From: a virus
IMG/VR virus record: IMGVR_UViG_3300042474_001185
Location: 1 to 64,000 of that record
DNA length: 64,000 nucleotides
Direction: 5' to 3' (one strand)
The notes beneath the pieces were generated by a model. That model had not been told where the DNA came from and searched no databases. It saw nothing but the letters and a program-made list of their open reading frames with translations. Within the stretch, counting starts at the first letter, position 1. Each line of letters starts with the position of its first letter. Positions 15,548 through 57,947 of this stretch are shown piece by piece. A program made the translations under genes and the position numbers.

Positions 15548-16930
15548 ATGGCAAAAAAGAAGATTCTGTTACTTTCAGATGATTTAAGAATGGCAAGTGG
15601 TATCGCCACAATGTCAAAAGAATTGGTGCTAGGTACGGCACATAAATACGATTGGTTTCAAGTAGGAGCCGCAATTAATCACCCTGAAGCTGGAAAAGTT
15701 TTAGATGTTAGCCAAGATATCCAAGAAAGATATGGTATCGCCGATGCTAATGTAAAGATTTTACCTTGGAATGGTTATGGTAACGCTGATTTGATTAGAC
15801 AATTAATCAACACAGAAAAGCCTGATGCTATTGTACACTTTACTGACCCTCGTTATTGGACATGGTTGTATGATATTGAACATGAAATCAGACAGAATGT
15901 TCCACTTTTATTTTACGCAATTTGGGATGATTTACCAGACCCATTATATAATCGTAACTTCTATGAAAGTTGTGATTGGATTGGTTGTATCTCTAGACAA
16001 ACATATGGTATCATTAAAAGATTATCAGCTTTAGATACAAAACCAACTTGGAAAACAAAGGCAGATTGGCAAGTAGATTATGTACCACATGGTATTAATA
16101 CTGATATCTATAAACCAGCTGATGTTTCAACTGAATTCCGTAAACAAATTTTAGGAGATAAAGAATATGATTTCGTATTATATTGGAGTAATAGAAACAT
16201 TAGAAGGAAACAACCAGCTGATGTTATCGTAGCATTTAAAAAGTTTTGTGATAAGATTGGTAAAGAAAAAGCAGATAAATGTGTATTACTAATGCACACA
16301 CAACCTGTTGATGAAAATGGTACTGATTTACCGGCAGTAATTGACGCAGTTGCTCCGGATGTTAATATTATATTCTCAGATGTAAGAAGACCAGTTGAAG
16401 AATTAAATCTTATTTATAATATAGCAGATGTAACAATCAACATAGCAAACAATGAAGGATTTGGATTAGCAACGGCAGAATCAGTAATGACAGGAACTCC
16501 TATTATTGTAAACGTAACTGGTGGATTGCAAGACCAATGTGGATTTGAAGTTGATGGTAAGTTATTAACACACGAAGATTACATTAAGATTGGTTCTTTA
16601 CATGAGTGGAGAAAATGGGAAGGAAAAGCTAAGCCTGGTCCTTGGGTTAGACCTGTATGGAGTAGAGCATTAGCATTAGCAGGCTCAGTCCCGACACCTT
16701 ATATTTGGGATGATAGAGTTGATGTAGAGGAAGTTGCTGAAGCAATTGAAGAAATGTACAACACACCAAAAGAAGTCCGTAAAGCAAATGGATTGATAGG
16801 TAGAGAGGCATTTATAGGAGATATGGGATTAACACATACAAATATGTGTCAGCAATTAATAAATGGAATTGAATCAACATTTGAAAATTGGAAACCAAGA
16901 GAAAGATTCGAAGTATTTAAAATTAAATAA
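15548..16930 (+). CDS. GT4-like (GT-B) glycosyltransferase
   Basis: SDDLRMASG, NRNIRRK, NEGFGLATAE, TGGLQDQ. Confidence 0.88.
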   Translation: MAKKKILLLSDDLRMASGIATMSKELVLGTAHKYDWFQVGAAINHPEAGKVLDVSQDIQERYGIADANVKILPWNGYGNADLIRQLINTEKPDAIVHFTDPRYWTWLYDIEHEIRQNVPLLFYAIWDDLPDPLYNRNFYESCDWIGCISRQTYGIIKRLSALDTKPTWKTKADWQVDYVPHGINTDIYKPADVSTEFRKQILGDKEYDFVLYWSNRNIRRKQPADVIVAFKKFCDKIGKEKADKCVLLMHTQPVDENGTDLPAVIDAVAPDVNIIFSDVRRPVEELNLIYNIADVTINIANNEGFGLATAESVMTGTPIIVNVTGGLQDQCGFEVDGKLLTHEDYIKIGSLHEWRKWEGKAKPGPWVRPVWSRALALAGSVPTPYIWDDRVDVEEVAEAIEEMYNTPKEVRKANGLIGREAFIGDMGLTHTNMCQQLINGIESTFENWKPRERFEVFKIK

Positions 16931-16938
16931 GTTATAAA

Positions 16939-18228
16939 ATGAAACCAACATTAGTATTTCAAGGACCTATATTTACACGTAGTGGTTATGGAGACCATTG
17001 TAGAGATTTAATGAAATCTTTACGCAAGATGGATAAATACGATATTAAGATTATCCCACTTCGTTGGGGAAACACTCCACAAAATCAAGTTGATGGTGAG
17101 AGCGATTTTGGTAGATGGATGTTAGAAAGAGTTATACCTCAATTAAACTTTAAACCTGATGTATTTATGCAGGTTTCTGTAGCAAATGAATTTGAACCAA
17201 AAGGTGAATACAATATAGGAGTAACTGCTGGTGTTGAAACTACAATTGCACCTAAAGATTTTATAGATGGTTGTAATAAAATGGATTTAATTATTGTTCC
17301 ATCTAATTTTACAAAACAAAATATTGGTGGCACTGTGTATCAACAACAAGACCAAGCATCAGGACAAATAGTTGGAGAACTTAGAGTTACAAAACCTATT
17401 CAGGTTCTTTTTGAAGGAGTTGATACTGAAATATTTTCTAAGGGAACTGATAAAGATGTGTTAGCAAATGTAAAAGAAGATTTCAACTTCTTAATTGTAG
17501 GACATTGGTTGAAAGGAGATTTAGGACAAGATAGGAAGGATATTGGTATGGCAATCAAAACATTGGCAACTGTATTTCAATATCTACCAGCTGATAAAAA
17601 ACCTGGTATAATTGTTAAAACATCTCACGCTGGATTTAGTGTAATTGATAGAGAGGGAACTAGAGAAAAAATAGATGCAGTATTAAAACCATTTGGTGAT
17701 AAATGCCCATCTGTATATTTGATACATGGTGATATGGAAGAAACTGATATGAGCAATTTATACCACCATCCTAAAGTAAAAGCAATGGTTTCATTTGCTA
17801 AAGGTGAAGGATATGGTAGACCTATGGCTGAGTTTACTTTGACAGGTAAACCAATTATAGCTAGTGGTTGGAGTGGACAAATGGATTTTTTACCTGCAGA
17901 ACATGCAGTATTATTAGAAGGTTCTTTAACAGCTGTACACGAATCAGCAGCTGACCAATTTTGCATGAAAGAAGCTCAATGGTTTACTGTAAACTACTCA
18001 AATGCAGCTAATAAATTATATGATGTTTATAAAAACTATGATATTTATTTAAAACAATCCGAAGGATTAAAAGAAAATACAAAATCTAAATTTACATTAG
18101 ATAAAATGCATGATACATTTTCGGAAATATTAGATGCAAATATCAAATCTAAGCCTAAGCTTGTTCCGTTTAATATTCCTAAATTAAATAGTTCTAAAAT
18201 GCAAATACCAAAACTTAACAAAATATAA
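16939..18228 (+). CDS. GT4-like (GT-B) glycosyltransferase
   Basis: TRSGYG, DRKDIG, GEGYGRPMAE, SGWSGQMDF. Confidence 0.88.
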   Translation: MKPTLVFQGPIFTRSGYGDHCRDLMKSLRKMDKYDIKIIPLRWGNTPQNQVDGESDFGRWMLERVIPQLNFKPDVFMQVSVANEFEPKGEYNIGVTAGVETTIAPKDFIDGCNKMDLIIVPSNFTKQNIGGTVYQQQDQASGQIVGELRVTKPIQVLFEGVDTEIFSKGTDKDVLANVKEDFNFLIVGHWLKGDLGQDRKDIGMAIKTLATVFQYLPADKKPGIIVKTSHAGFSVIDREGTREKIDAVLKPFGDKCPSVYLIHGDMEETDMSNLYHHPKVKAMVSFAKGEGYGRPMAEFTLTGKPIIASGWSGQMDFLPAEHAVLLEGSLTAVHESAADQFCMKEAQWFTVNYSNAANKLYDVYKNYDIYLKQSEGLKENTKSKFTLDKMHDTFSEILDANIKSKPKLVPFNIPKLNSSKMQIPKLNKI

Positions 18229-18695
18229 TGTCATTTGCTTTACAATATAAATCTCTTATTGAAAGTGAGAAGAAGTTGGGTAAGGCTTTAATAAAGCCCG
18301 GAAATATTTATAGAATTATGGTATATAAATATGCCGATGGAATTACAAAATCATTATCAGGACCAACTTCATCTTTGATATTCGCAATTGGTATATACGA
18401 TAAACAATTATTTTGTTTAAAAATTAGTGAAATTAAACCTGAAAAGTTTTTTAAATGGCTAAAGGTAGTTTTTTTAAAAAATTTAAATGATGAGAGTTTT
18501 GATACATCTGAACATCTTATGGAATTGCTTGTAAAAGCAGATAAGTCTGGTAAAAAATTGTATTCTTCCTATGTTAAGCCATCTACAATAGCTAAAGGAC
18601 CACTAAATCCATATAGAACATATAATCTTAGTGGTATAACACTTGTTCAGGAGGTTAAGATAAAAAAGGAAATACTTAAGAAGTATTACAAATAG
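18228..18695 (+). CDS. Hypothetical protein
   Basis: 155-aa basic ORF with YRTY near the C-terminus (weak resemblance to T4 DNA end-protector-like proteins). Confidence 0.5.
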   Translation: MSFALQYKSLIESEKKLGKALIKPGNIYRIMVYKYADGITKSLSGPTSSLIFAIGIYDKQLFCLKISEIKPEKFFKWLKVVFLKNLNDESFDTSEHLMELLVKADKSGKKLYSSYVKPSTIAKGPLNPYRTYNLSGITLVQEVKIKKEILKKYYK

Positions 18696-18759
18696 TTTAT
18701 TTTCCCAATCGGTTATATTTACTGTTACAACATTACAATTATAATAGTAAATAAAGGAT

Positions 18760-20841: not shown

Positions 20842-20878
20842 AAAAATGGGTAATTCTAAAAAAGTTACCCATTTTTTT
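20842..20878 (+). terminator. Rho-independent terminator
   Basis: AAAAATGGGTAA-loop-TTACCCATTTTTTT after the collagen-like gene. Confidence 0.85.
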
Positions 20879-20933: not shown

Positions 20934-20965
20934 TTTGGAAAATATAATAAATTGTTGTATATTTG
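20934..20965 (+). promoter_or_regulatory. Bacteroidota-type promoter
   Basis: TTTG-N20-TATATTTG upstream of ATG 20983. Confidence 0.7.
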
Positions 20966-20982: not shown

Positions 20983-21618
20983 ATGGCAATAAATGTAACA
21001 TATGCAATTACCGTTTGTAATGAGCATGAAGAAATTATGAAATTGATAAATTTCTTACACCCTAGAATTAAAAAAGATGATGAAATATTAATCCAATATG
21101 ATGAGGATTCTGTAACACCACAGGTTAAAGATTATCTAAATGTTATACACCAATTACATTCATCTAATATAAAGGTTATAGGATTTCCCTTAAATAATGA
21201 TTTTGCTTCGTATAAAAATAATTTAAAAAATCATGCAAAAGGTATTTTTATTTTTCAAATAGATGCTGATGAAATTCCATCGGAGTATATGGTAGAAAAT
21301 CTTTCTGATTTTTTATTAGCAAATAAAGATGTGGATTTATTCTTTGTACCACGTATAAATACAGTAGAAGGACTTACCCAAGAGCACATTAAAAAATGGG
21401 GATGGCAAGTTAATGAAAATGGTTGGGTAAATTTCCCCGATTATCAAACAAGATTATATAGAAGGACATCCGATATTGAATGGGAAGGTAAAGTACATGA
21501 AAGAATAAAAGGATATAACACTCTATCGGTTTTACCAGCAGATGCAGATTATTGTTTAACTCATCATAAGCAAATTGAAAGACAAGAAAAACAAAACGCT
21601 TACTATGATACAATCTAA
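20983..21618 (+). CDS. GT2-family glycosyltransferase
   Basis: ITVCNE, DFASYKN, IFQIDADE, PDYQTR, VHERI. Confidence 0.88.
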   Translation: MAINVTYAITVCNEHEEIMKLINFLHPRIKKDDEILIQYDEDSVTPQVKDYLNVIHQLHSSNIKVIGFPLNNDFASYKNNLKNHAKGIFIFQIDADEIPSEYMVENLSDFLLANKDVDLFFVPRINTVEGLTQEHIKKWGWQVNENGWVNFPDYQTRLYRRTSDIEWEGKVHERIKGYNTLSVLPADADYCLTHHKQIERQEKQNAYYDTI

Positions 21619-22606
21619 GATAGCTTTCCTTACTGAAATGGGATTTGTTGGCAAAGTTCCAGCAAATCATCCAAATATGAGAACGGAGTTTGCTTGGATG
21701 CATGCTTTAGATGCTGACCATTTTAATATTCATTTGTTTGGTGCAGATAAAAATTTGACAGGTTATGACCATGTCTTTATTATATTTCCAAAAGGTAAAC
21801 CATTTTTAAATTCAACTGCGGTAGAATTGATAAAAGGTATTAATCCAATATCAGAATTACTTCAGCAAGATATTGTTGGTAGAATAAAAGAAAAAGGAAA
21901 TACAAATGTACATTATGTGCAAGAAGGACCTCATTGGTTTCAAAATGATTATAGTGTAGAAGACCAAATTTACTTCTATAACTTTTTACAATCTTGCGAT
22001 TCAATCTTTACTCACAATGATTCTGATGTATATTATTACAAAGGATTATTTCCCAATAAAAAAGTGAGACCAATTGGTACACTAATGATTGATGAATTAG
22101 TTAAAGATATCGTACCTACAAAAGAAGATAAAGTAATTATAGGTGGTAACTTTGCAAGATGGTATGGTGGATTTGAAAGTTATATGATAGCTGATAATTT
22201 TGGAGTTCCTGTTTGGGCACAAACATCACATGCTATGAGAGAAAACGAAGGTATGGGTGGTGTATTAAATCACTTACCAAGAATGATGTGGAGTGAATGG
22301 ATGGCAGTATTATCAACATTCAAATATGCAGTACATATGATGCCAACGGTAGCCGCTGGTACATTTGCTTTGAATTGTGCATACTTTGGGATACCATGTA
22401 TTGGAAATCAAGATGTGGATACTCAATTACTATGTCACCCATCGTTATCCGTAGCAGTAAATGATTTGGAAGGAGCAAGAGAATTAGCAATACAATTGAG
22501 AGATGATAAAGAGTTTTATAATCAATGTTCTGAAATAGCAAAGAATAATTATGAAGCTTGTTTTTCAAAAGAACTTTGGTTAAGAAATATAAAAAGAGAA
22601 TTATAA
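21605..22606 (+). CDS. GT-B-like glycosyltransferase
   Basis: C-terminal AGTFALNCAYFGIPCIG donor-binding-like segment; start taken as ATG 21605. Confidence 0.6.
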   Translation: MIQSKIAFLTEMGFVGKVPANHPNMRTEFAWMHALDADHFNIHLFGADKNLTGYDHVFIIFPKGKPFLNSTAVELIKGINPISELLQQDIVGRIKEKGNTNVHYVQEGPHWFQNDYSVEDQIYFYNFLQSCDSIFTHNDSDVYYYKGLFPNKKVRPIGTLMIDELVKDIVPTKEDKVIIGGNFARWYGGFESYMIADNFGVPVWAQTSHAMRENEGMGGVLNHLPRMMWSEWMAVLSTFKYAVHMMPTVAAGTFALNCAYFGIPCIGNQDVDTQLLCHPSLSVAVNDLEGARELAIQLRDDKEFYNQCSEIAKNNYEACFSKELWLRNIKREL

Positions 22607-22607
22607 T

Positions 22608-23324
22608 ATGGATTTTGAAATTAAAGGAACTAAGTTGGTAGAGATACCTTATTTGGAAAGAGAATTATCAGAACAAAAAGAATCTGATAAAGTATTGATT
22701 GTTGGTGAACGAATTGCAACGGAAGGTATATTACAAGCCGTATTAAAAAGACCCTTCACATCATGCTTATGTACCGACATTATGCCAATGGGACCTGGCT
22801 CTACATTGGAAAGAATAATAGATGCTGATAAAAGAGTTACATTTGTTCAGCAAGATTTTATATTAGCTGAAGAAGAAACAAAATACGATTATATTATTTG
22901 TATTAATGTATTGGAACACTTTGGTATGAACTTCGCTGAATTCTCTGGATTTGCAGGGGAATATGCTGGGGATGATTATATTAGATGGAATCACGATTTG
23001 AGAGCAATTGAAAAAATGATTACATTATTAAATAAAGATGGAAAAATAATTATCACAGTACCAGCTGGTCAACCTATATTGTCTGGAGATATTAATCCCG
23101 GAAATAAAATGCCATTCCTTCGTAGATATGATGAAATGCGAATTAAGTTAATTGAAGATTTATCAGTTAAAAATGCAATGAAAATTGAAAATACATTTTT
23201 CTATTCAGAAAATTTTAATGATTGGTTTGAGAGTGATATAACAATAACATCTCCACAATATACTCAGGCAAATAATCCATATACTCCTAATATGATATGG
23301 GCATTTACATTGAAACAAAAATAA
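22608..23324 (+). CDS. SAM-dependent methyltransferase (DUF268-like)
   Basis: YDYIICINVLEHFG, DLRAIEKM...LNKDGKIIITVP. Confidence 0.7.
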   Translation: MDFEIKGTKLVEIPYLERELSEQKESDKVLIVGERIATEGILQAVLKRPFTSCLCTDIMPMGPGSTLERIIDADKRVTFVQQDFILAEEETKYDYIICINVLEHFGMNFAEFSGFAGEYAGDDYIRWNHDLRAIEKMITLLNKDGKIIITVPAGQPILSGDINPGNKMPFLRRYDEMRIKLIEDLSVKNAMKIENTFFYSENFNDWFESDITITSPQYTQANNPYTPNMIWAFTLKQK

Positions 23325-23325
23325 A

Positions 23326-24093
23326 ATGATAACAGTTATATTAAATGGTTATAAGAGACCTGAAAATCTTAATGAACAATTAGAGGCATTAAAAAATCAA
23401 ACATTACCACCTGATGAAATACTTTTTTGGTATAATAATCCGGGTGATAATGATTTAATTAATTACGATATTGGAACTGAAATAGCTGGTGCTTATTGTA
23501 ATTACAATTTTGGTGTGTGGGCTAGATTTGCATTTGCACTTAACGCAAAAAACGATTATGTATGTGTATTTGATGATGATACAATTCCTGGTAAGAAATG
23601 GTTAGAGAATTGTATGAACACTATGAATGAGAAAGAAGGTCTATTGGGTACGGTAGGATTATTATATCCAGCACCATTACCACCTCAACATTCATCTTAC
23701 TACGAACATTATTTAAGATTTGGATGGCCTGAAAGTGGTAACAATGATAGGACTGTAGAAGTTGATTTAGTAGGACACAGCTGGTTCTTTAAAAAGGAAT
23801 GGTTATCTCATATGTTTAGAGAATTACCAGACCCTAAATATAATACCTGTGGTGAGGATATGCACTTCTCATATATGTTACAAAAGTATGCTGGTATTAA
23901 AACATATGTACCACCACATCCTCGTTCTGATATGGAAATGTGGGGAAGTATTAAAGGTGCATACGGAGGAGATTCTGCTTCACTTTGGGAATCAAATCAA
24001 GCTGGTATAGATGGTACTCCATTTAAGCAATTGATGAACGATTATTTTCACAAACAAAGAGTAAAAGGATGGAGGTTAGTAAATGAAAAATAA
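23326..24093 (+). CDS. GT2-like glycosyltransferase
   Basis: ITVILNGYKR, VFDDDTIPG, GEDMHFS. Confidence 0.8.
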   Translation: MITVILNGYKRPENLNEQLEALKNQTLPPDEILFWYNNPGDNDLINYDIGTEIAGAYCNYNFGVWARFAFALNAKNDYVCVFDDDTIPGKKWLENCMNTMNEKEGLLGTVGLLYPAPLPPQHSSYYEHYLRFGWPESGNNDRTVEVDLVGHSWFFKKEWLSHMFRELPDPKYNTCGEDMHFSYMLQKYAGIKTYVPPHPRSDMEMWGSIKGAYGGDSASLWESNQAGIDGTPFKQLMNDYFHKQRVKGWRLVNEK

Positions 24094-26093: not shown

Positions 26094-26099
26094 TTAATT

Positions 26100-48518: not shown

Positions 48519-49463
48519 ATGAAGAATTTACGTTTCGTATGTGCTCAACCCGCAATTCCATATTACACTTGGCAGGTTGAAGTAATGATACACAATTTTA
48601 TTGAAATGGGAGTTAATCCAAACAATATGGATATAGTTTGTTATGCGGCAAATGGAATAGTACCTCCTGATTGGAGAAAGTTAGCAGACAAATACAACTA
48701 TGTTAGATTTTTCTTTTATGATGATACAAGACGAAATAGAGGATATACATCATCCATAAGACCTAATATATTAAAACAACATTGGAAAGCTAGACCTGAA
48801 ATACATGATGATGTAATTTTTTATCATGATTGTGATATTGCCTTCACAAAACCAATTGGAGAATGGATAACGGACGAAATGATTAATGATAATAATTGGT
48901 ATGGTTCGGATTGTAGATGGTACATATCTTATTCTTATATAAAATCAAAAGGAAATGATGTATTAAGTGCTATGTGTTCACTAATGGAAATTGATGAAAA
49001 GGTTGTTGAAGATAATGAACTAAATGGAATTGGTGCACAATATATAATGAAAGGTATATCCGAAAAATATTGGGAAACAATAGAAATGGATTGTGAAAAG
49101 TTATTTGTTAATATTACAGAGTTAAATAGAATTAAAGTAGAACAAGACCCAACACACCATTCATTACAAATATGGTGTGCTGATATGTGGGCTGTTTTAT
49201 GGAACGCTTGGAAGATGGGATATAAAACAATATGTCATCCTAATTTAGAATTCAGCTGGGCAACATCTCCTGAAAATTTATGGGATAAATGTAATATATT
49301 TCATAACGCAGGTGCTACAACTTCAAAGGATGGATTGTTTTACAAAGCAGAATATATGAACAAATTACCATATAATGAAAATTTAAATATTAAAGAAGGA
49401 ACTACTTCATATGAGTATTGGAAACTAATACAAAAAACAGCAAAAAAATCAGTATTGATATGA
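48519..49463 (+). CDS. GT-A glycosyltransferase resembling peptidyl O-glycosyltransferases (plant SGT1/HPAT, GT96/GT95-like)
   Basis: YYTWQVEVMIHNF, SIRPNILKQHW, YHDCDIAFTKP (DxD), IGAQYIM, WCADMWA, IFHNAG. Confidence 0.6.
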   Translation: MKNLRFVCAQPAIPYYTWQVEVMIHNFIEMGVNPNNMDIVCYAANGIVPPDWRKLADKYNYVRFFFYDDTRRNRGYTSSIRPNILKQHWKARPEIHDDVIFYHDCDIAFTKPIGEWITDEMINDNNWYGSDCRWYISYSYIKSKGNDVLSAMCSLMEIDEKVVEDNELNGIGAQYIMKGISEKYWETIEMDCEKLFVNITELNRIKVEQDPTHHSLQIWCADMWAVLWNAWKMGYKTICHPNLEFSWATSPENLWDKCNIFHNAGATTSKDGLFYKAEYMNKLPYNENLNIKEGTTSYEYWKLIQKTAKKSVLI

Positions 49464-50425
49464 GTAAATCTTATAGTGTATTTGTTGATGATAAATATTA
49501 TTATGACTTTGTAGCATTATATAATAGTTGGAAATATTATGAAAGTAAAATCCCAATTAAAGTTTATATTGCTGGCGATTTGAGTGAAGAAAGAAGAATC
49601 GCTTTGGAAAAAATAGTAAAAGTTATTAACGTAAGTAGTGATGGTTATGGATATCCGCACTTTAAAGGAAAGTACTTATTTAAATGGATTGGCTTATCAA
49701 AGTATATGGATGATTATGAAATACTATTAGATGCCGATACATTATTTTTATCTAATATTGATTTTCTATTTGATGAATTGGAAAAAGGAAAATTTATAGG
49801 AGCTAGAGAGCATGTAGATGTTATACACAATTCATATGTAACCAATGATGAATGGCCAGATGAATGTATGAGAATAAGAAATCAATTGAAAAAATATATA
49901 GGCGATGTGGCTGATAATTATGTAGAAGATTTAATAACACCAACATATAATGCAGGACTTATTGGATTTAGTAAAGTTCATCATAAATTTTTATTAGATA
50001 AATCCATAGAAATATTAACAAGTGATTTTCACACTGATAAAAATCCAATATCACACTTAGAGCAATATATGATGAATTTATTATTACAATTATATTCAAT
50101 AGATATTCATATTTTACCTCAATTAGAATGGATGAATACATGGCATTGGCATCTTAATCCAAAAAAGATACTAAAAATAGAAGATAGTAAATTTGCATTG
50201 TATAATGATGGAGGTAATAAAATAAATTTTTATCATTTTACAGGAGGTATTGGTTTAGTTGACCCGATTGATAAGATAATGAAACCATGCAGAATGCATC
50301 AGATATACGAATCTCAAGTCTACGAATCTCAATTTAAACGAGACGATGTTGAGAAACTTTGGTATAGTAGATATCAAAATCCAGTAATTTTATTATACGA
50401 ACACTTTGCAAATAAAGGGTTATAA
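49460..50425 (+). CDS. GT8-like glycosyltransferase
   Basis: LLDADTLF, YNAGLI, EQYMMN, FYHFTG; start taken as ATG 49460. Confidence 0.75.
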   Translation: MSKSYSVFVDDKYYYDFVALYNSWKYYESKIPIKVYIAGDLSEERRIALEKIVKVINVSSDGYGYPHFKGKYLFKWIGLSKYMDDYEILLDADTLFLSNIDFLFDELEKGKFIGAREHVDVIHNSYVTNDEWPDECMRIRNQLKKYIGDVADNYVEDLITPTYNAGLIGFSKVHHKFLLDKSIEILTSDFHTDKNPISHLEQYMMNLLLQLYSIDIHILPQLEWMNTWHWHLNPKKILKIEDSKFALYNDGGNKINFYHFTGGIGLVDPIDKIMKPCRMHQIYESQVYESQFKRDDVEKLWYSRYQNPVILLYEHFANKGL

Positions 50426-50436
50426 AACAAAAACAT

Positions 50437-51465
50437 ATGACAATAAAAGAACAATTTCAAACTTACAAAATTCATCAATTACAATTAGACCCATATGGTG
50501 TATGTAATGCTAGATGCTGGTTCTGTCCAGTAAAATATAAAGGAAACCCAGCGGAAGGGAAAGAAGTGATGAGTGTTGAATTATTAGAAAAAATAATTAA
50601 AAATCTTATTGATGAAAGAGATAGAGAAGATGGTTTAGTACATAAACATTTTGGAGGATTTTATACAGCACATTATAACGAAATTCTTTTATATCCACAC
50701 TTTGAACAATTATTACAAATCTGCCAAAAATATAGATTATGTTTTATGGTATTATCCAATGGAGTTCCTTTGACTCCTGACAAGGTTGATTTAATTGTAA
50801 AATACAAAGGTGTTGTAAATGGTATATGTCTAAATATTCCAGCATTTGAACCTGAAGTTTGGAGTTTAAGAAGTGGTATAAACATAAAGCAATTTGATAA
50901 ACTAATATCTAATGTAAAATATGCTATGGAACAACTACCTGATATGGTACAAAACAAATCATTCTCAATTCAAATAAATGGTTCTAGTGAACATTCTTTT
51001 AGTGATAAGGGTGGTTGGTTAGATAAGGGTATTGAATTTCCAACTGATATAGATTTGGACCCAGTTACTGGTGAGTTAGCTAAGCAAACCCAAATAGCTA
51101 AAAATTTATTTGAAGGTTTACAAATATATCCATGTGCATCTTTAATTGATAGAGCTGGTTTGTTGGACCATATAATGACTAATAAAGAAGCAATAAAAAG
51201 AAACTTACAGCATGGAGATGAAACTAAAAAAGTTATTGGATGTGGTAATGGTAGAGAAGTAGGTGGTAGACCTGTTGGTTGGATTCATGTAAACGCAGCG
51301 GGTAAAGTATTCCTTTGTTGTAATGACTATGATATGGAAGTTCAGTTTGGAGATTTTAAAACGCAAGAATTAAGTGAATTCTGGGGAAGTACAGAGCACC
51401 AAAGAAAAGTGCAAAAATCATACGATACGATTTGTAGAGGATGTGCTTCGGCTATTTTTGAATAA
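50437..51465 (+). CDS. Radical SAM enzyme with SPASM/twitch domain
   Basis: CNARCWFC; C-terminal C...G.VFLCCND...G...C..C. Confidence 0.88.
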   Translation: MTIKEQFQTYKIHQLQLDPYGVCNARCWFCPVKYKGNPAEGKEVMSVELLEKIIKNLIDERDREDGLVHKHFGGFYTAHYNEILLYPHFEQLLQICQKYRLCFMVLSNGVPLTPDKVDLIVKYKGVVNGICLNIPAFEPEVWSLRSGINIKQFDKLISNVKYAMEQLPDMVQNKSFSIQINGSSEHSFSDKGGWLDKGIEFPTDIDLDPVTGELAKQTQIAKNLFEGLQIYPCASLIDRAGLLDHIMTNKEAIKRNLQHGDETKKVIGCGNGREVGGRPVGWIHVNAAGKVFLCCNDYDMEVQFGDFKTQELSEFWGSTEHQRKVQKSYDTICRGCASAIFE

Positions 51466-51497: not shown

Positions 51498-51968
51498 ATG
51501 ATATATTGGTTTACGGGTCAACCCGGTGCAGGTAAGACGGTATTAGGTACTAAGTTAAAAGACTTTTTACAAACCGAAAAGAGAAATTGGAGAAAGGATG
51601 TATTCCATATTGACGGAGATGATTTAAGAGAATTGACTCTTAATAAAGATTACACAGAACAAGGTAGAATTCAAAACATTAAGAATGCACAATTATTAGC
51701 ATATTTCCTACAAGCTAATGAGTGTGATGTTGTTGTTTCTTTAGTCGCACCATATAAAGAATTAAGAGAGGAATTTAAAAAAATATGTGCGGATAATATA
51801 ATTGAAATTTATGTTCATACTAATCGTAAAAGACAAAGAGAACAATTTAAAGTAGAGGGATACGAAGCACCTGAAACGAACTTCTTTGATATGGATACAA
51901 CATCTGATAATCCAACACAATCTTTTACAAAATTAATACATCACTTAAGAGAAATAGATAAATTATAA
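51498..51968 (+). CDS. cysC: Adenylyl-sulfate (APS) kinase
   Basis: IYWFTGQPGAGKT, IDGDDLR, VSLVAPY...RE, EIYV, YEAPE. Confidence 0.88.
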   Translation: MIYWFTGQPGAGKTVLGTKLKDFLQTEKRNWRKDVFHIDGDDLRELTLNKDYTEQGRIQNIKNAQLLAYFLQANECDVVVSLVAPYKELREEFKKICADNIIEIYVHTNRKRQREQFKVEGYEAPETNFFDMDTTSDNPTQSFTKLIHHLREIDKL

Positions 51969-51972
51969 AGTT

Positions 51973-52332
51973 ATGAAAAAATACGCAATGTACATTGGAA
52001 GATGGCAAAATTGGCACAAAGGACATGAGTGGTTAATAAACCAACAATTAGAAAAAGGTAAAAACGTTTGGGTAGCAATTAGAGATGTTCAGCAAGATGA
52101 GAACAATCCAAAGACGGCTCAACAAATCCTAAAAGAATTATCAGCAGAACCATTTTTTACAAACAATTTTGATAAGATTTTGTTATCTATTATTCCTGAT
52201 ATTGAATCGGTGAACTATGGCAGAGGTGTAGGATATGATGTAATTTATCACGAACCACCTGCAGATGTAGCTGTAATTAGTGGTACTGCTATCCGTAATG
52301 GAGAAATGAAATCAGATGGTAGTTCAACGTAA
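51973..52332 (+). CDS. Minimal HxGH nucleotidyltransferase (cytidylyltransferase-like)
   Basis: IGRWQNWHKGH, YGRGVGY, ISGTAIR. Confidence 0.8.
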   Translation: MKKYAMYIGRWQNWHKGHEWLINQQLEKGKNVWVAIRDVQQDENNPKTAQQILKELSAEPFFTNNFDKILLSIIPDIESVNYGRGVGYDVIYHEPPADVAVISGTAIRNGEMKSDGSST

Positions 52333-54190: not shown

Positions 54191-54601
54191 ATGAAAATTT
54201 GGTTATGGAGATTACTCGGACTATTGTTCGTAGGTTGCGCATACATCGGAGCTATTGTTCCTGGCGTACCTATGACAACATTTGTAATCTTAGCAGCATG
54301 GGCATTCGCTAAGAGTTCACCAAAGTTAAATCATTGGTTGCATACTCACCCAACATTCTCACCATATCTTATTAGATGGGAGGAAAAAAGCATTTATCCA
54401 ACGAAAGTTAAATGGATAATGGCTATTACTATGGTTGTAAGTTATTCCATTTTACTATTCACATTACATAAACCAGCAGCACTTATTGGTATTGGTTGCT
54501 TTATGTTATTTTGGGTAGTATGGGCTTGGAGATATCCGGGTTCAGAAGAAGAATATGAGCGTAGAAAGAAAGCTGGAGAGAAAATTGGTTGGACAAAATA
54601 G
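54191..54601 (+). CDS. ybaN: YbaN/DUF454 inner-membrane protein
   Basis: IGAIVPGVPMTTFVILAAWAFAKSSPKLNHWL..HP.F. Confidence 0.85.
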   Translation: MKIWLWRLLGLLFVGCAYIGAIVPGVPMTTFVILAAWAFAKSSPKLNHWLHTHPTFSPYLIRWEEKSIYPTKVKWIMAITMVVSYSILLFTLHKPAALIGIGCFMLFWVVWAWRYPGSEEEYERRKKAGEKIGWTK

Positions 54602-54612
54602 TTTAATCTAAT

Positions 54613-55380
54613 ATGGAAGATGTTACACTTATCATTCAAGGAAGATTGACACAAGAAACATATGATTTTTATCTAAAGACTTGTACCAATTTTCCTGTTC
54701 TTATTTCCACATGGGTGGATTGTAAAATAGATTTCTCTAGTTTACCACCTAATTTTTTAGTAATATTATCACAAATTCCTGAAGAGCCTGGTGCTCAAAA
54801 TTTTCATTATCAAACTGTTTCTACTTTAACTGCATTAGAAAGAATAAAAACAAAGTATGCAATTAAAGTGAGAGGTGATGAATTTTATTCAAATTTGCAA
54901 TATATTCATAATGTATTAAGAGTAGATCCCGATAAAATACATTCTGCTCCGGTATTTTTTAGAGCGTGGCAGTACTCGGAATATCATATATCAGACCATG
55001 TTATAGCTGGTACAACTGAAAATCTATTGATTATGTTTAGAGCATGTAAGCACAACTTTGATACTGGTAAGATGAATGTTTCAAAATGGAAAATTGATGG
55101 AAACTTTCATAAATACGTTACAACTCATGCACCCGAAGAACGAATAACTAAATCTTATTTAGATGCTAAAGCTCCTGATAAGTTTGAAAGAGTTGATGGT
55201 AGAATATTAATGAAAGAATATTTTGATATATTAGATTTAAATTTATTAAAACCATACAAAGTAAAAGCAAATTTATTTAGAGTAGAATGGTATGATAACT
55301 TCCTTCCAGAAGCAAATTATAGTATATCAACCATAGACCAATTATTTAGTGATGACCCATATAAAATACCAAACCAATGA
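54613..55380 (+). CDS. WavE-like polysaccharide biosynthesis protein
   Basis: VTLIIQG, LISTW, NFHYQTVST..AL, YAIKVRGD, YHISDH, PEE. Confidence 0.7.
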   Translation: MEDVTLIIQGRLTQETYDFYLKTCTNFPVLISTWVDCKIDFSSLPPNFLVILSQIPEEPGAQNFHYQTVSTLTALERIKTKYAIKVRGDEFYSNLQYIHNVLRVDPDKIHSAPVFFRAWQYSEYHISDHVIAGTTENLLIMFRACKHNFDTGKMNVSKWKIDGNFHKYVTTHAPEERITKSYLDAKAPDKFERVDGRILMKEYFDILDLNLLKPYKVKANLFRVEWYDNFLPEANYSISTIDQLFSDDPYKIPNQ

Positions 55381-55802
55381 TACTAATATCGCATAGAGGA
55401 AACATAGATGGTAAAATACCTGAATACGAAAACAATCCAAATTATATACAAGCTGCATTAGAGTTAGGTTACGATGTAGAAGTTGATGTATGGTTTGTTG
55501 ATGGTAAGTTTATGTTAGGACATGATGAACCGCAATACGAAACTGATTATAAGTTTTTGATGAACGAAAAGTTATGGTGTCATGCTAAACACTTGGATGC
55601 ATTGTTTGAAATGAAAAAATATGCAATTCATTACTTTTGGCATGAAACTGATACCGTAGCACTTACATCTAAAAATTATGTTTGGGCATATCCTGGTAAG
55701 CAACCAATCAAAGGAAGTATAGCTTGTATGCCTGAATTGGAAAATGATAATGTACTACTTTGTAAAGGTATTTGTTCTGATTATATAAAAAGGTATAGGT
55801 AA
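55377..55802 (+). CDS. Small GDPD/PLC-like phosphodiesterase
   Basis: ISHRGN, ENNP, GYDVEVDVW, LGHD, WCHAK, GICSD. Confidence 0.75.
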   Translation: MILISHRGNIDGKIPEYENNPNYIQAALELGYDVEVDVWFVDGKFMLGHDEPQYETDYKFLMNEKLWCHAKHLDALFEMKKYAIHYFWHETDTVALTSKNYVWAYPGKQPIKGSIACMPELENDNVLLCKGICSDYIKRYR

Positions 55803-56204
55803 ATGAATATATATCCTCCAGCTAAAGTTTATATAGCAAAAAGTAGTGTTCATGGCTGGGGTGTTTTTGCCAAAGAAATAATCTATGAAGGGGAGGTAAT
55901 AGAAGAAACCCCGTTATTAGACCTAAAGATTGAGAAAGGGTCACCATCATCGGTTTTATTAGATTATAGATTCAATTGGCCGCAAGGAAGTGGTAACAAT
56001 TGGGAAAAACAAGTTATACCTTGGGGATATGGTTGTTTATATAATCATTCCAACGAAGCTAATGCATATTGGCGCTCAAATTTGGAAAATGAAACTTTTG
56101 AATTTGTAGCAAATAGAGATATAGAAATTGATGACGAAATATTTACCTATTATGGTGGTGTTGAGTATTGGGAAGATGGTAGAACTAAAACAAATGTAGT
56201 ATAA
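55803..56204 (+). CDS. Stand-alone SET-domain methyltransferase
   Basis: HGWGVFAKE.I..GEVIE, YNHS...N, A.RDI...EIFTYY. Confidence 0.9.
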   Translation: MNIYPPAKVYIAKSSVHGWGVFAKEIIYEGEVIEETPLLDLKIEKGSPSSVLLDYRFNWPQGSGNNWEKQVIPWGYGCLYNHSNEANAYWRSNLENETFEFVANRDIEIDDEIFTYYGGVEYWEDGRTKTNVV

Positions 56205-57016
56205 TGAAAATAGCACTTTGTTTTTCTGGATTTATTAGAGATTTAGATGAAACTAAAAACTTTTGGACAGAACTTATAGAAAAACATAAGATAGATGTGT
56301 ATGCCTCTTTTTGGGATACTGAAAAACCTGAATTGAATGATACTATAAACAATTTCTTAACAATATATACTCCTAAAAAATATGAAGTTGAGAATTATAA
56401 AATATTCAAAGAAACAACGCAAGATTTTGCTTCAATGAATATAGCATCTCCACAAAACTTACTTCCACATTTACAAGATACCTCAAAAGCATTTGGGCAA
56501 CTATCAATGTATTATAAAGTTTGGAAATGTAATATGCTTACTAAGCAATTGGGTATAGAGTATGATTTAGTTATAAGAGCTAGAACCGATGTTATTTTAG
56601 ATGAGCATTTTGAAATAGTTGAAAATGATATGTTAAATATACCAATGGGATGGATGAGTTGTTTTTCATATCCGCACTCCGATGGTATAAATGATTGCTT
56701 TGCATACGGAAGACCAAAGATAATGGATTATTATAGTTTTATATATCTTAGAATGATGGAATATCTAAATGTAGGACATTATGTATTCCCACCAGAACAT
56801 TTCTTAGCTGTACATTTTAGTAAGATTCATATTCAAATGAGATACTTTCCAAACTATATGATAATAACAAGAATATCAAAAGGTACACCACATGATGTTT
56901 ACAATTCTTTTATAACAAAACCATACGAAGATATAAGATGGAGTGATTGGAATGATTTTATTCCGGATGAAAGGTGGACATTTAAGAAATCAATAAAAGA
57001 TGATTTTATCGTTTAA
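56204..57016 (+). CDS. Glycosyltransferase-like protein (KIALCFSG family)
   Basis: MKIALCFSG..R, SMYYK, YDLVIRARTD, NDCFAYG, PE. Confidence 0.6.
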   Translation: MKIALCFSGFIRDLDETKNFWTELIEKHKIDVYASFWDTEKPELNDTINNFLTIYTPKKYEVENYKIFKETTQDFASMNIASPQNLLPHLQDTSKAFGQLSMYYKVWKCNMLTKQLGIEYDLVIRARTDVILDEHFEIVENDMLNIPMGWMSCFSYPHSDGINDCFAYGRPKIMDYYSFIYLRMMEYLNVGHYVFPPEHFLAVHFSKIHIQMRYFPNYMIITRISKGTPHDVYNSFITKPYEDIRWSDWNDFIPDERWTFKKSIKDDFIV

Positions 57017-57052
57017 ATGTATAATGTTATATTTAATAAAAAATAAAGCATT

Positions 57053-57220
57053 ATGAATGTAGAAAACAAAATCAAAGACATTATAGATATGTTAGAAGAT
57101 GCTATCTCATTTGAAGATTGGAATAGAGTTGAGGAAGCACAAAAAGAACTAACATTTATATATGAAGAAATGCAATCATCATTTCCTCTAGATGAGTGGG
57201 ATGAGAATGATATAGATTAA
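57053..57220 (+). CDS. Small acidic hypothetical protein (55 aa)
   Basis: ATG with A-rich leader; open to TAA 57220; fills the intergenic gap. Confidence 0.5.
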   Translation: MNVENKIKDIIDMLEDAISFEDWNRVEEAQKELTFIYEEMQSSFPLDEWDENDID

Positions 57221-57227
57221 TAAAAAT

Positions 57228-57947
57228 ATGGTAAAAAAAATACTGGTTACGGGATTCCCCCATAGTGGGACTACTATACTTCGTGCTAAAATTGGAGAAT
57301 GTAAAAACATATATGAGGCTCAATATGAATGTGTAGACCCACCAAACTTCTACCCAGCTATGCCATATGATTTTTATGTATGGAAGCATCCTTTTTTGGA
57401 TACGCCATTTAGAAATCATACGTTTGCAATAAAGCCTGACAGTAAATACGTTGATACAATTGTTATTCCAATTATTAGAAATCCTTGGAATATATTTTCA
57501 TCCTTACATAAGAGAGGTACACAAAGTGGAGAATTTTCAATATATGATAGTAGACAGGGACATTCTTTACCTTGGTATGAAAATACATGCGAAGTTATAT
57601 TTGATGCATTTCAAAAAAATTATAAAGATGTATATCCAATAAAATACGAAGAAATGTTTGATAATAATTTTGAAAAGCTTAGAAATATTTTTGATAGTAT
57701 TGGATTGGAATATGATGATGATATATTTGAAAAAAGAACCAAAGAATTTAGTCATGGTGATGCTATGTATGTAGAAGATTATGATAAAAACGGAAAGTAT
57801 GATGGTGGTTTGAGAGCTTGGCAAATAAACCAACCTTTTAAAAATATGAATGGAGATATTAATTTACCCGATGATTTTTCTCAAATGTTAGCAAATTCAC
57901 CAAGCATTCAAAAATTAGGGTATTCGGACCCTCGTATAACTGATTGA
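57228..57947 (+). CDS. Sulfotransferase-family protein
   Basis: VTGFPHSGTTIL (5'-PSB loop), IIRNP...SS (3'-PB), IKYEEM. Confidence 0.8.
   Translation: MVKKILVTGFPHSGTTILRAKIGECKNIYEAQYECVDPPNFYPAMPYDFYVWKHPFLDTPFRNHTFAIKPDSKYVDTIVIPIIRNPWNIFSSLHKRGTQSGEFSIYDSRQGHSLPWYENTCEVIFDAFQKNYKDVYPIKYEEMFDNNFEKLRNIFDSIGLEYDDDIFEKRTKEFSHGDAMYVEDYDKNGKYDGGLRAWQINQPFKNMNGDINLPDDFSQMLANSPSIQKLGYSDPRITD

Follow-up and report, generated by a model that had tools for sequence, protein, structure and literature searches.

A glycan-gene island interleaved with Ser/Thr-rich protein genes in an uncultured T4-like phage: a candidate system for virion glycosylation

What does a phage make with about 40 kb of glycan genes, and on which acceptor would it place the product? 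The question is raised by IMG/VR record IMGVR_UViG_3300042474_001185, a contig covering ~37% of one uncultured, lake-type T4-like phage, of which we analysed the first 64,000 nucleotides (the window). The glycan genes lie at 15.5-58 kb of the window (Table 1), and every sizeable ORF is on the + strand. From gene content and comparison, we consider it about an even call that this is a glycan-biosynthesis island conserved within one aquatic T4-like myovirus lineage, with which the phage would glycosylate its own Ser/Thr-rich virion proteins in the cytoplasm. For this, phage enzymes would activate sugars in the cytoplasm of the host, giving GDP-linked 6-deoxyhexoses or heptoses, a ManNAc-type sugar and possibly an N-acylated amino sugar, and would supply PAPS for sulfation. 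O-linked glycans would next be assembled by soluble glycosyltransferases (GTs) straight onto Ser/Thr-rich phage proteins of the same compartment, and these proteins would become fibres of the virion, either as integral parts or by attachment.

Gene content and lineage of the island

The backbone is T4-like, and the closest cultured relative is Microcystis phage Mel-JY01 (PolB 51% identity, syntenic), in which GT genes span only ~6 kb at the corresponding site. The island lies immediately downstream of PolB/clamp-loader/nuclease genes, and further glycan genes follow beyond 57947 (GT31-like at contig 69258, epimerase at contig 71565). For comparison we used two near-complete relatives, G001 (207 kb, CheckV 100%) and G002 (188 kb, 97%). 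The island is syntenic in G001, with a core of ~30 genes at 60-93% identity, and is found in many metagenomic contigs as well; the genes of 37510..41162 are all kept in relatives. Missing from G001 are the acyl cassette, the HAD-nucleotidyltransferase, the mucin cassette and the whole 54.6-57.9 kb block from 54613 onward. No photosystem genes were found in the complete relatives. The first-pass annotation had suggested mimicry of polysaccharides bound by Bacteroidota SusCD systems; since Mel-JY01 is the closest cultured relative, nothing points to Bacteroidota.

Table 1. Features of the glycan-gene island (+ strand; numbers within a row are gene starts; firm, GT with Pfam or PHROGs support)
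Position	Strand	Feature	Evidence or remark
15548..16930	+	GT4, GT-B type (firm)	Pfam Glycos_transf_1
16939..18228	+	GT, GT-B type (firm)	phrog_2170 glycosyltransferase
18228..18695	+	155-aa protein between GTs and fibre gene	G001 homologue 50% identity
18760..20826	+	Collagen-like (Gly-Thr-Ser)n fibre, 688 aa	S+T 0.37; Pfam Collagen E 4e-34
20842..20876	+	Intrinsic-terminator-like hairpin, 14-bp stem and T run	Strong; ends GT-GT-fibre unit
20935..20964	+	Sigma-70-like promoter motif, TTGGTA-N15-YGTATMTTT class	1 mismatch; precedes long GT/sugar block
20983..24093	+	GT2 20983 (firm); GT1-like 21575 (weaker); methyltransferase 22608; GT2 23326 (firm)	Pfam; for 21575, GT1-type look-alikes by language model
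24083..26732	+	WecB-type UDP-GlcNAc 2-epimerase 24083; 259-aa protein 25068, then 77-aa ORF; DegT/PseC/LegC-like aminotransferase 26100	24083, Pfam Epimerase_2 E 2e-56; 26100, DegT E 2e-22
26734..29523	+	Acyl cassette: ACP 26734; AMP-dependent ligase 26945; FabG-like SDR reductase 28017; 257-aa protein	257-aa protein, faint GNAT/N-acyltransferase signal
29527..32160	+	GT4 29527 (firm); GT11 fucosyltransferase-family 30596 (firm); FkbM methyltransferase 31459	Pfam
32167..37564	+	Nucleotide-sugar block: GDP-fucose-synthase-like reductase 32167; GDP-mannose-3,5-epimerase-like SDR 33084; SDR 34091; 134-aa protein; PfkB kinase 35445; HAD + sugar-1-P nucleotidyltransferase 36200	PDB matches: 32167, E 2e-62; 33084, E 3e-41; 34091, close homologue of 6vo6, E 1.6e-102; 35445 (also Pfam), heptose-7-P kinase E 3e-10; 36200 (also Pfam), NDP-sugar pyrophosphorylase E 5e-20; 134-aa protein between 34091 and 35445
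37510..41162	+	GT2 37510 (firm); proteins 38790, 39696, 40310; HAD hydrolase 40635	37510, Pfam/PHROGs
41239..44484	+	Two S/T-rich fibre-like proteins, 705 and 371 aa	S+T 0.28 and 0.27; sequence repeats
44500..46083	+	Subtilase (S8)-domain protein	Pfam S8 E 9e-35; phrog_9158 E 2e-76
46097..48472	+	Two mucin-like proteins	Poly-Thr and (AAPTTTT)n linkers; repeated ~80-aa Cys-containing domain
48519..49463	+	Soluble GT-A, candidate poly-Thr O-glycosyltransferase (weaker)	phrog_4417 E 3e-60, full-length
49418..51465	+	GT8-like 49418 (weaker); radical SAM/SPASM enzyme 50437	49418, Mannosyl_trans3 E 3e-4 (under cut-off), glycogenin motif E 0.05
51498..52332	+	APS kinase 51498 (APS to PAPS); 119-aa kinase/cytidylyltransferase-like ORF
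54191..57947	+	DUF454 small membrane protein, 136 aa; WavE-family GT 54613 (firm); 141-aa protein; SET-domain protein; 270-aa protein; sulfotransferase 57228	54613, Pfam/PHROGs

Eight GTs in the island have Pfam or PHROGs support and three more are weaker. About 14 had been counted before, including a GT-D-like gene; GT-D (DUF1792) had no match in the window, while the earlier calls of three GT2 genes, a GT11 and a WavE-like gene are backed by Pfam/PHROGs. Likewise, the WecB gene, the Fcl-like gene and two further SDR epimerases (matched in PDB/Pfam), the sugar kinase, the HAD-nucleotidyltransferase, two methyltransferases and the acyl-transfer and sulfation genes were all recovered. The protein called an aminotransferase is DegT-like and retains the PLP-lysine motif, but it is short (210 aa), and its NCBIfam PseC/LegC matches fall well under cut-off.

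A close PDB homologue of the SDR 34091 is 6vo6, which we take to be Cj1427. In Campylobacter jejuni, capsular GDP-heptose is modified by the C4-dehydrogenase Cj1427, a C3/C5-epimerase and a C4-reductase (PMC10680097). Similarly, 34091 is accompanied here by an Fcl-like reductase, a heptose-7-P-kinase-like PfkB protein and a nucleotidyltransferase, and GDP-mannose 4,6-dehydratase was not recognised in Pfam and PDB scans of the ORFs, as would suit a route to heptose better than one to fucose. Unlike in C. jejuni, GmhA isomerase and the cupin-type epimerase were not recognised, and the kinase is of PfkB rather than GHMP type. On these matches, the substrate may be a heptose.

The promoter motif class before the central block had 14 matches against 1.75 expected, and its remaining intergenic copies lie ahead of replication and DNA-modification genes. 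Being shared with replication genes, the motif suits transcription early in infection, as would be required for modifying the host surface or DNA as well. This, and the lack of enrichment of the T4 late motif TATAAATA, weigh against virion glycosylation.

Pairing of glycosyltransferases with fibre-like and poly-Thr proteins

Five Ser/Thr-rich proteins are interleaved with the glycan genes, as the first-pass annotation had noted: the collagen-like fibre, two fibre-like proteins and two poly-Thr mucins. Their S+T fractions are 0.27-0.37, against ~0.1 in neighbours, and none of the five has a hydrophobic N-terminus. Such a composition is also frequent in beta-structured fibres without glycosylation.

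At the left end, the GTs 15548 and 16939 share 49% and 40% identity with Mel-JY01 genes and 81-85% with G001; the best PDB match of 15548 is the chlorovirus GT B736L (E 5e-10). The 155-aa protein that follows had no Pfam or PHROG match, while the fibre matches PHROG tail-fibre families. A collagen-like ORF (332-971 aa) stands downstream of a GT in 48 of 51 lineage loci, which are phylogenetically non-independent, and G001 likewise has one after the two GTs. Across loci, the C-terminal 110 aa of the fibre are 30-48% identical while the adjacent GT is 80-97% identical; a tip far more variable than the GTs is expected of an exposed, host-facing part. That the two GTs, the 155-aa protein and the fibre form an enzyme-acceptor module is reasonably supported.

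The two fibre-like proteins farther right had no Pfam or PHROG match; their N-terminal ~145 aa are kept in relatives and the remainder is divergent, so that alignment to G001 and other loci is limited to the N-terminal part. Homologues of the neighbouring S8 subtilase are located within the tail-fibre/baseplate clusters of the cyanomyoviruses S-CREM1 and P-SSM2, which marks 41-46 kb as a fibre module. The mucin-like proteins have no signal peptide, and their Thr codons are a mixture of ACA and ACT, like the genome at large.

Directly after the mucins stands the phrog_4417 GT 48519. It had no Pfam match; its AlphaFold model (pLDDT 95) has a GT-A fold, and the Foldseek matches (GT8/GT24-like, TM ~0.5) point to a fold, not to an acceptor. 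The ORF directly upstream of the phrog_4417 GT is Thr-rich in 44 of 73 related, phylogenetically non-independent loci, compared with 41 of 557 background ORFs, and the same pairing is seen in 9 of the 11 clusters that the GTs form at 70% identity. A radical SAM gene follows the GT in 14 of the 73 loci. The mucins, the GT and the radical SAM gene are missing as a single block in G001 and G002, where the subtilase gene directly adjoins the APS kinase gene, and G001 encodes no poly-Thr protein anywhere.

In cultured phages, phrog_4417 GT homologues lie within head/tail modules next to proteins with poly-Thr ends: the capsid protein and the protein upstream of the GT in Lactococcus P1046, the capsid protein in Enterococcus 4995_1, the major tail protein in Enterococcus VPE25, gp18 and gp11 in Clostridium phiCTP1, and two proteins in Chryseobacterium MA9V-3. 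As in the small Firmicutes phages, 48519 adjoins poly-Thr proteins, here directly upstream and lost jointly with it in relatives. In those phages, however, capsid and tail proteins would themselves serve as acceptors, whereas here the candidates are dedicated modular mucin-like proteins, and the GT comes with another GT-A protein, a radical SAM/SPASM enzyme and a sugar-supply island of very large size. From this independent comparative evidence, poly-Thr phage proteins seem to be the substrate of one GT or more, and a second enzyme-acceptor module, comprising the mucins, the phrog_4417 GT, the GT8-like protein and the radical SAM enzyme, is likewise reasonably supported.

Export machinery and competing readings

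Searches for Bac_transf, WecA/MraY-type, Wzx, Wzy/ligase, ABC-2, GtrA, PMT_2 and STT3 gave no match here, in G001 or in G002, and the positive controls were detected every time; GT-C enzymes were likewise lacking in all three. Since TM segments are predicted in none of the GTs, a synthase-type exporter is improbable as well. Within the span, the DUF454 protein is the sole multi-pass membrane protein; in G001 there is a 950-aa protein for which 8 TM segments are predicted and no family was matched, a point against the virion reading. The earlier statement that flippase, Wzy, ABC exporter and initiating transferase are lacking therefore extends to the contig, and export genes elsewhere in the genome, which would have spoken against a phage acceptor, are not found in the near-complete relatives as far as can be read from their genomes. 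With export genes missing and sugar genes mixed with fibre genes, the phage probably sugar-coats parts of its own particle. The proposal of a cytoplasmic phage protein as acceptor thus gains from the phrog_4417/poly-Thr pairing and the export-gene absence. Virion glycosylation appears the likeliest reading for the collagen-fibre and mucin modules, in which the conserved pairings would unite enzyme and substrate; the central 20-kb sugar/GT block may supply the same acceptors, with products located on the virion. For the whole island the proposal is unproven, as are a single acylated, methylated and sulfated glycan as its product, the place of this glycan on virions and the two mucins as virion parts.

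In O-antigen and capsule loci, the acceptors of such soluble GTs are lipid-linked intermediates, and the phage could draw on its host for an initiating enzyme, a flippase and a ligase. The island might accordingly alter LPS O-antigen, core or capsule at the cytoplasmic face while relying on the host for initiation, flipping and ligation, likely to block superinfection or prevent progeny from adsorbing to debris. WecB, the Fcl-like gene, GT11, GT2, GT4, WavE, FkbM, the acyl cassette and the heptose-type pathway are typical O-antigen/capsule content, the promoter before the central block is of early type, and the 'LPS clusters' of P-SSM2, S-SCSM1 and S-SCSM2R are usually read as host LPS/cell-wall synthesis and modification (PMC12801897). 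Yet neither near-complete relative has an initiating transferase, flippase, polymerase, ligase, ABC exporter or GtrA-type gene, the embedded fibre and mucin genes co-vary with the GTs, and the poly-Thr pairing across unrelated phages would be left unexplained; we regard host-surface remodelling as rather unlikely.

We hold it still less probable that the region is a hyperplastic patchwork of unrelated modules (virion O-glycosylation, host-glycan or metabolite, perhaps DNA-sugar) with no single product. The segments missing from G001, GC swings from 0.265 to 0.384 (lowest in the acyl cassette, 0.265-0.275), interruption by an HNH endonuclease (Pfam) and small ORFs, and the short GT stretch of Mel-JY01 would suit it; the syntenic ~30-gene core, however, points to a maintained set of genes that function together, not to random accumulation. 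Very improbable, in our judgement, is that some or many of the GTs put sugars on modified phage DNA bases to evade restriction. The adjoining replisome region is rich in DNA modification (two Mom paralogues, a PLOD-type GT, a DruA-like gene, GTP cyclohydrolase I), and phage GTs that build glycans on DNA are on record (Pyle et al. 2024, as cited in PMC12619734). But the phrog_4417 family occurs in small siphophage head/tail modules beside poly-Thr tails, and the island's GTs are interleaved with fibre genes. Moreover, we know of no DNA modification for which ten or more GTs would be needed along with chemistry of the fucose or heptose, acyl, methyl and sulfate types.

Precedents for virion glycans and phage glycan clusters

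Glycosylated collagen-like filaments are known from BclA of the Bacillus exosporium and from Mimivirus fibrils, the latter with virus-encoded glycan clusters; in both, the protein is glycosylated within the cell that makes it, no lipid carrier is involved, and the product is displayed as a nap on the particle. Here, too, a Thr-rich Gly-X-Y collagen-like protein is encoded beside GTs and sugar-synthesis genes, but the sequence homology shown does not go beyond the collagen repeat, which is a Pro-free Gly-Thr-Ser repeat and only presumably glycosylated. Mycobacteriophage capsid and tail-tube proteins carry C-terminal glycans (Freeman et al. 2023, as cited in PMC12619734). As described there, Che8, Corndog and Myrna likewise combine soluble phage GTs with Ser/Thr-rich structural tracts in the cytoplasm, where export is unneeded. 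They have 1-4 GTs, compared with ten or more plus full sugar-activation pathways here, and their acceptors are capsid/tail-tube C-terminal tails, whereas the candidates here are separate fibre and mucin proteins.

The clusters of large cyanomyoviruses resemble the island at a smaller size; that of S-SCSM2R has 13 GTs and 22 LPS-cluster-type genes (PMC12801897). They share with the island a T4-like backbone and GT2/GT4/GT11 genes on one strand, together with methyltransferases and several nucleotide-sugar epimerases. In P-SSM2 the cluster is 12 kb long (193-205 kb) and lies ~9 kb upstream of tail-fibre genes including the S8-subtilase homologue; the island here is ~3x as long and adjoins replisome genes. 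Beyond the cyanomyovirus content, it has an ACP/acyl-ligase cassette, a heptose-type pathway, APS kinase and a sulfotransferase, and the candidate acceptors, the collagen-like fibre and the mucins, are encoded inside it.

Phage lineage and gene content of the glycan island

The 64 kb analysed here are the first part of a 79,837-bp IMG/VR-type virus contig that is 37% complete by CheckV. In the window, all sizeable ORFs are on the plus strand and the GC content is about 0.32-0.34. The DNA polymerase (PolB) shares 51% identity with its counterpart in the 190-kb Microcystis phage Mel-JY01, and about 33% with the polymerases of T4-like cyanophages. Mel-JY01 also has the same gene order of PolB, clamp loader and nuclease, followed by a GT (glycosyltransferase) island of about 6 kb, in which three GTs are homologous to genes 15548, 16939 and 20983 (genes are named by their starts in the window). 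By PolB identity and gene order, the phage is therefore an aquatic T4-like myovirus. The link to Bacteroidota SusCD systems suggested in the first-pass annotation found no support, as the backbone is T4-like and, among cultured phages, nearest to that of Mel-JY01, for which Microcystis is the host. The first 20 kb had no megablast match among GenBank phages, a Photo_RC (psbA/psbD) search of the complete relatives gave no photosystem gene, and a literature search for Mel-JY01 returned no paper. The Fcl-like gene 32167 was considered as a pointer to the host and rejected: its best genome matches (77% and 63% identity) are on short MAG contigs of discordant taxonomy, probably phage DNA. These two contigs, L101 and L102, are labelled Proteobacteria and Thaumarchaeota, and are probably mis-binned phage DNA from related lineages.

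Features of the window, the adjoining contig and one relative (gene starts or spans)
Feature	Position	Strand	Basis or remark
Two Mom paralogues, PLOD-type GT, family-B DNA polymerase, DruA-like protein, clamp-loader subunits, PD-(D/E)XK nuclease	upstream of island		
GT4	15548, 29527	+	profile
phrog_2170 GT	16939	+	profile
GT2	20983, 23326, 37510	+	profile
GT11	30596	+	profile
WavE	54613	+	profile
Weaker GT	48519	+	predicted fold
Weaker GT	21575	+	language-model look-alikes only
Weaker GT	49418	+	profile match below threshold
UDP-GlcNAc 2-epimerase	24083	+	
DegT-like protein	26100	+	short but conserved, PLP-lysine motif kept
Acyl carrier protein, AMP-dependent ligase, FabG-like reductase	26734-28748	+	
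Acyl cassette as a whole	26734-29523		
Methyltransferases (two)	22608, 31459	+	
Three extended SDR enzymes, PfkB kinase, HAD-nucleotidyltransferase fusion, second HAD protein			present in island
APS kinase	51498	+	
Sulfotransferase	57228	+	
Collagen-like fibre	18760	+	Pro-free (Gly-Thr-Ser)n; matches PHROG tail-fibre families
Fibre-like proteins	41239, 43369	+	repeat-rich
Mucin-like proteins	46097, 47603	+	poly-Thr and (AAPTTTT)n linkers
Radical SAM/SPASM enzyme	50437-51465		
HNH_3-type homing-endonuclease-like gene	52577-53137		weak, below Pfam cut-off
SET-domain gene	55803-56204		protein lysine methyltransferase-type
VWA protein and MoxR-type ATPase	58088-61699		
Sigma-70-like motif copies	2246, 3372, 9938, 14363, 20935, 53139, 58027, 60419, 63298	+	
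TerC-family membrane protein, GT31-like, fifth NAD-dependent sugar epimerase	L002 (downstream locus) 3347-4000, 5258-6016, 7565-8419; contig 67347-72419		beyond window
Eight-TM protein of G001	L095 (G001 locus) 5064-7916	-	950 aa

Profile searches of the island ORFs confirmed eight GTs. The first-pass observation is confirmed, with fewer GTs: the earlier count of about 14 comes down to eight plus three weaker candidates, and we could assign the GT-D-like fold claimed among them to none of the ORFs. The same searches bore out the epimerase, SDR, aminotransferase-like, kinase, HAD-nucleotidyltransferase, methyltransferase, acyl and sulfation classes. Six ORFs (25068, 35029, 38790, 39696, 55377 and 56204) received no assignment from Pfam (E up to 5), PHROGs or NCBIfam, and GT 16939 had no match among PDB sequences. 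A GT31-like gene and another sugar epimerase lie at 69-72 kb of the contig, past the flagged end, therefore the glycan genes run beyond the originally delimited span.

The island is syntenic, at about 60-93% amino-acid identity, in the relative G001 (207 kb, 100% complete by CheckV), and a second relative, G002 (188 kb, 97% complete), shares it too. The lineage is frequent in lake-water metagenomes, with 149 loci in IMG/VR. Its core is conserved, and four cassettes present here have no counterpart in G001: the acyl, HAD-nucleotidyltransferase and mucin cassettes and the 54.6-57.9 kb block of WavE, SET and sulfotransferase genes. By this gene comparison, the island is a conserved core with swappable add-ons. 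The acyl cassette (ACP, AMP-ligase, FabG-like SDR and a faint GNAT) looks like a recent add-on, perhaps N-acylating an amino sugar, because it is missing in G001 and has the lowest GC of the island (0.265-0.275). The SET-domain gene, which has the WavE-type GT on one side and the sulfotransferase on the other, occurs in G002 and not in G001.

Searches against PDB sequences indicated that 32167 is GDP-fucose-synthase-like (E 2e-62), that 33084 is GDP-mannose-3,5-epimerase-like (E 3e-41), and that 34091 matches 6vo6 (E 1.6e-102), which we take to be the C. jejuni GDP-heptose C4-dehydrogenase Cj1427. Because of these matches, and because the ORF scans revealed no GDP-mannose 4,6-dehydratase, a GDP-heptose-type pathway is a reasonable but putative assignment. 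Candidates for the C4-dehydrogenase, C4-reductase and epimerase of a C. jejuni-type pathway are 34091, the Fcl-like reductase and the GME-like epimerase. For the heptose-1-P supply, the sole PDB match of the PfkB kinase, to a heptose-7-phosphate kinase, is weak, as is the HddC-like match, and no GmhA or cupin epimerase was recognised.

Poly-Thr proteins and the phrog_4417 glycosyltransferase

The first-pass annotation had reported five Ser/Thr-rich proteins within the island, and these are real: their Ser+Thr fraction is 0.27-0.37, compared with about 0.1 in the neighbours. None of the five has a signal-peptide-like N-terminus. The two mucin-like members, for which profile searches gave no structural annotation, are directly upstream of GT 48519. 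This GT matches phrog_4417, a family without assigned function, at E 3e-60 over residues 5-307 of its 314 aa. Its AlphaFold model (pLDDT 95, from a 27-sequence alignment) was placed by Foldseek among GT-A enzymes of the GT8/GT24 type (WbbM, UGGT, LgtC and glycogenin) with TM-scores of about 0.5, and such scores for a predicted structure say nothing on the acceptor; PDB sequence searches gave noise only.

IMG/VR contains 314 relatives of GT 48519, and the pairing was counted at 73 loci with enough upstream sequence. A Thr-rich partner was defined as an ORF that ends just before the GT and contains, anywhere along its length, a 20-aa window with 12 or more Thr. Such an ORF was present at 44 of the 73 loci, compared with 41 of 557 other same-strand ORFs used as background, and when the GTs were clustered at 70% identity, the pairing was found in 9 of 11 assessable clusters. 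The partner proteins are about 190-2,230 aa long and mostly unrelated to one another. In G001 and G002, the subtilase gene directly adjoins the APS kinase gene downstream of it, and a single block comprising the mucin genes, the two GT-A genes and the radical SAM gene is absent. G001, the one complete genome without the GT that was examined, has no poly-Thr protein (at most 9 Thr per 20-aa window).

In cultured phages, homologues of GT 48519 (29-35% identity, at least 91% coverage) are inside head/tail modules, and proteins with Thr-rich tracts adjoin the GT in six of them. In Lactococcus phage P1046, both the capsid protein and the product of the gene upstream of the GT have poly-Thr ends; so do the capsid protein of Enterococcus phage 4995_1, the major tail protein of VPE25, gp18 and gp11 of Clostridium phage phiCTP1, and two proteins of Chryseobacterium phage MA9V-3. 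In Lactobacillus phage 521B, an Ig-like protein ends in a Pro/Thr-rich (PTTVA)n repeat, not pure poly-Thr. What the present locus has in common with this pairing is a full-length GT homologue, adjoining poly-Thr proteins, and tracts that are missing where the GT is missing. The poly-Thr ends on capsid and tail proteins beside the GT also resemble the mycobacteriophage system, where C-terminal glycans on capsid and tail-tube proteins are the only case shown by experiment (Freeman et al. 2023, as cited in PMC12619734). Our literature search returned no paper tying the phrog_4417 GT family to poly-Thr tails.

The mucin-like proteins also contain a repeated domain of about 80 aa with conserved Cys, and have Cys-rich tails at their ends. 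Since an HMM of this domain matched in only about 10 loci, we rejected it as a general trait of the Thr-rich partners. A radical SAM/SPASM enzyme follows the GT here and at 14 of the 73 related loci; a role in peptide cross-linking or maturation is conceivable.

The collagen-like fibre and the two adjacent glycosyltransferases

Gene 18760 (18760-20826) encodes a protein in which Pfam Collagen matches in five stretches, with Gly-X-Y runs at residues 32-70, 149-299 and 479-600, so that non-collagen N- and C-terminal domains flank a long Thr-containing Gly-X-Y region. The order GT4, GT, 155-aa ORF and collagen-like fibre is kept in 48 of 51 lineage loci, and in G001 the corresponding place is occupied by a (Gly-Thr-Ser)n homologue of 341 aa. 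The fibre itself is hypervariable inside this conserved operon: its length varies from 332 to 971 aa across the lineage loci, even between near-identical phages (loci L106-L185). The C-terminal 110 aa are 30-48% identical among loci where the flanking GT is 80-97% identical, a divergence of the kind expected where a fibre tip is exposed and faces the host.

Collagen helices poor in Pro are stabilised when their Thr is glycosylated, and in BclA the GPT repeats carry glycans. The position of the fibre next to two GTs is therefore suggestive, and not more than suggestive, of Thr O-glycosylation. Like a BclA-type filament, the fibre has a Thr-containing Gly-X-Y repeat with non-collagen ends; for O-glycosylation of the repeat Thr, what the sequence shows is the gene adjacency to the two GTs.

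The other two fibre-like proteins, 41239 and 43369, keep their N-terminus in relatives and are divergent in the remainder, as is usual for fibres. The S8-subtilase protein of the island has homologues in S-CREM1 and P-SSM2, where they are encoded within clusters of tail-fibre and baseplate genes; by this synteny, it is virion-associated. BLASTP of 43369 and 46097 against the S-CREM1 subtilase neighbours revealed no similarity, and tblastn of 41239 and the collagen-like fibre against cultured phages gave no match.

Export genes, expression and the likely acceptor

Because the contig holds only about one third of the genome, export and initiation genes were searched for in the contig, G001, G002 and two partial relatives, with positive controls matched in each search. 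Bac_transf (PF02397), Glycos_transf_4 (PF00953, WecA/MraY type), Polysacc_synt (PF01943, Wzx), ABC2_membrane (PF01061), Wzy_C (PF04932), GtrA (PF04138), PMT_2 and STT3 were absent from all of them. By hydropathy alone, the span has no multi-pass membrane protein except a 136-aa DUF454 protein, and no GT has a predicted TM segment. A caveat to the absence of exporters is a 950-aa protein of G001, the only multi-pass membrane protein of this complete relative for which no family match accounts. The island is similar to Wzx/Wzy-, ABC- or synthase-dependent surface-polysaccharide loci in that GTs are clustered with genes for nucleotide-sugar synthesis and modification. It differs from them in that these searches recognised no initiating phosphoglycosyl transferase, flippase, ABC-2 exporter, membrane synthase or polymerase/ligase. 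Both the complete relatives and the pairing of the GT with poly-Thr proteins add weight to the earlier argument that a locus without export genes points to a protein acceptor.

The main rival is host-surface remodelling, in which the phage enzymes would borrow the machinery of the host. This has been the default guess for the "LPS" clusters of large aquatic T4-like phages, which have been unexplained since the sequencing of P-SSM2, and the cyanomyovirus LPS/CWSM clusters share with the island a T4-like backbone and clustered GT2, GT4 and GT11 genes, epimerases and methyltransferases (PMC12801897). With 13 GTs, S-SCSM2R is described as possibly the marine phage richest in them, and its authors read these GTs as host-surface or DNA modification (PMC12801897). 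The P-SSM2 cluster (about 12 kb, with about seven GTs, four epimerases and one methyltransferase) is about 9 kb upstream of tail-fibre and subtilase genes. Those clusters are smaller, whereas the present island is larger and chemically richer, with candidate acceptors embedded in it. Expression does not separate the readings. A sigma-70-like motif, TTGGTA-N15-YGTATMTTT(ACATA), occurs 14 times against 1.75 expected, and the copies between genes stand ahead of the second Mom unit, a 614-aa orphan, the gene that follows PolB, the PD-(D/E)XK nuclease, GT2 20983 (one mismatch), VWA and MoxR. The central sugar/GT block (21-41 kb) may be expressed early, since the motif before 20983 is shared with replication and DNA-modification genes, and early expression fits precursor supply, host-surface modification or DNA modification equally well. 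The T4 late motif TATAAATA lies just upstream of the small ORF heading the GT-GT-fibre unit; it showed no enrichment overall in the scan, and therefore gives no inference on timing. In generic scans for promoters and terminators, matches were no more frequent than by chance, except for one strong terminator, which closes the GT-GT-fibre unit.

For the mucin cassette taken alone, glycosylation of the virion or of phage proteins is the probable function; that it is the main function of the island is evenly balanced in our judgement. We hold it doubtful that the whole island is one cytoplasmic factory that places a complex heteroglycan on the collagen-like and mucin-like fibres of the phage. If so, a heteroglycan of deoxyhexose or heptose and ManNAc-type sugars, acylated, methylated and sulfated, would be built wholly in the host cytoplasm, and the virion would gain a glycocalyx like the fibrils of Mimivirus or the nap of the Bacillus exosporium. 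The "LPS clusters" that other large aquatic T4-like phages carry would then, by extension, have virion glycosylation as their role and not host-surface remodelling. The present lineage offers a testable alternative, with candidate acceptors inside the cluster and a GT family that genome comparisons connect with poly-Thr tracts on proteins of phage particles. Virion glycosylation at such a scale would bear on host adsorption, on sticking to particles or mucus, on resistance to proteases and grazers, and on the reading of proteomes and cryo-EM maps. It would also provide soluble enzymes that O-glycosylate proteins independently of lipid carriers, together with defined peptide tags.

Three further observations concern other genes. 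In the 950-aa protein of G001, the eight predicted TM segments all fall in the C-terminal third; Pfam gave no match for it, and it matches, in part, only a hypothetical protein of Mel-JY01. The HNH_3-like gene is inside the island, with the sulfation genes on one side and small ORFs on the other, and is kept in relatives. Downstream of the island, the VWA protein, which matches CobT_C faintly, forms a pair with an AAA_5/CbbQ_C MoxR-type ATPase, each with its own copy of the promoter motif, and aquatic T4-like phages typically have such a CobT/CobS-like pair.
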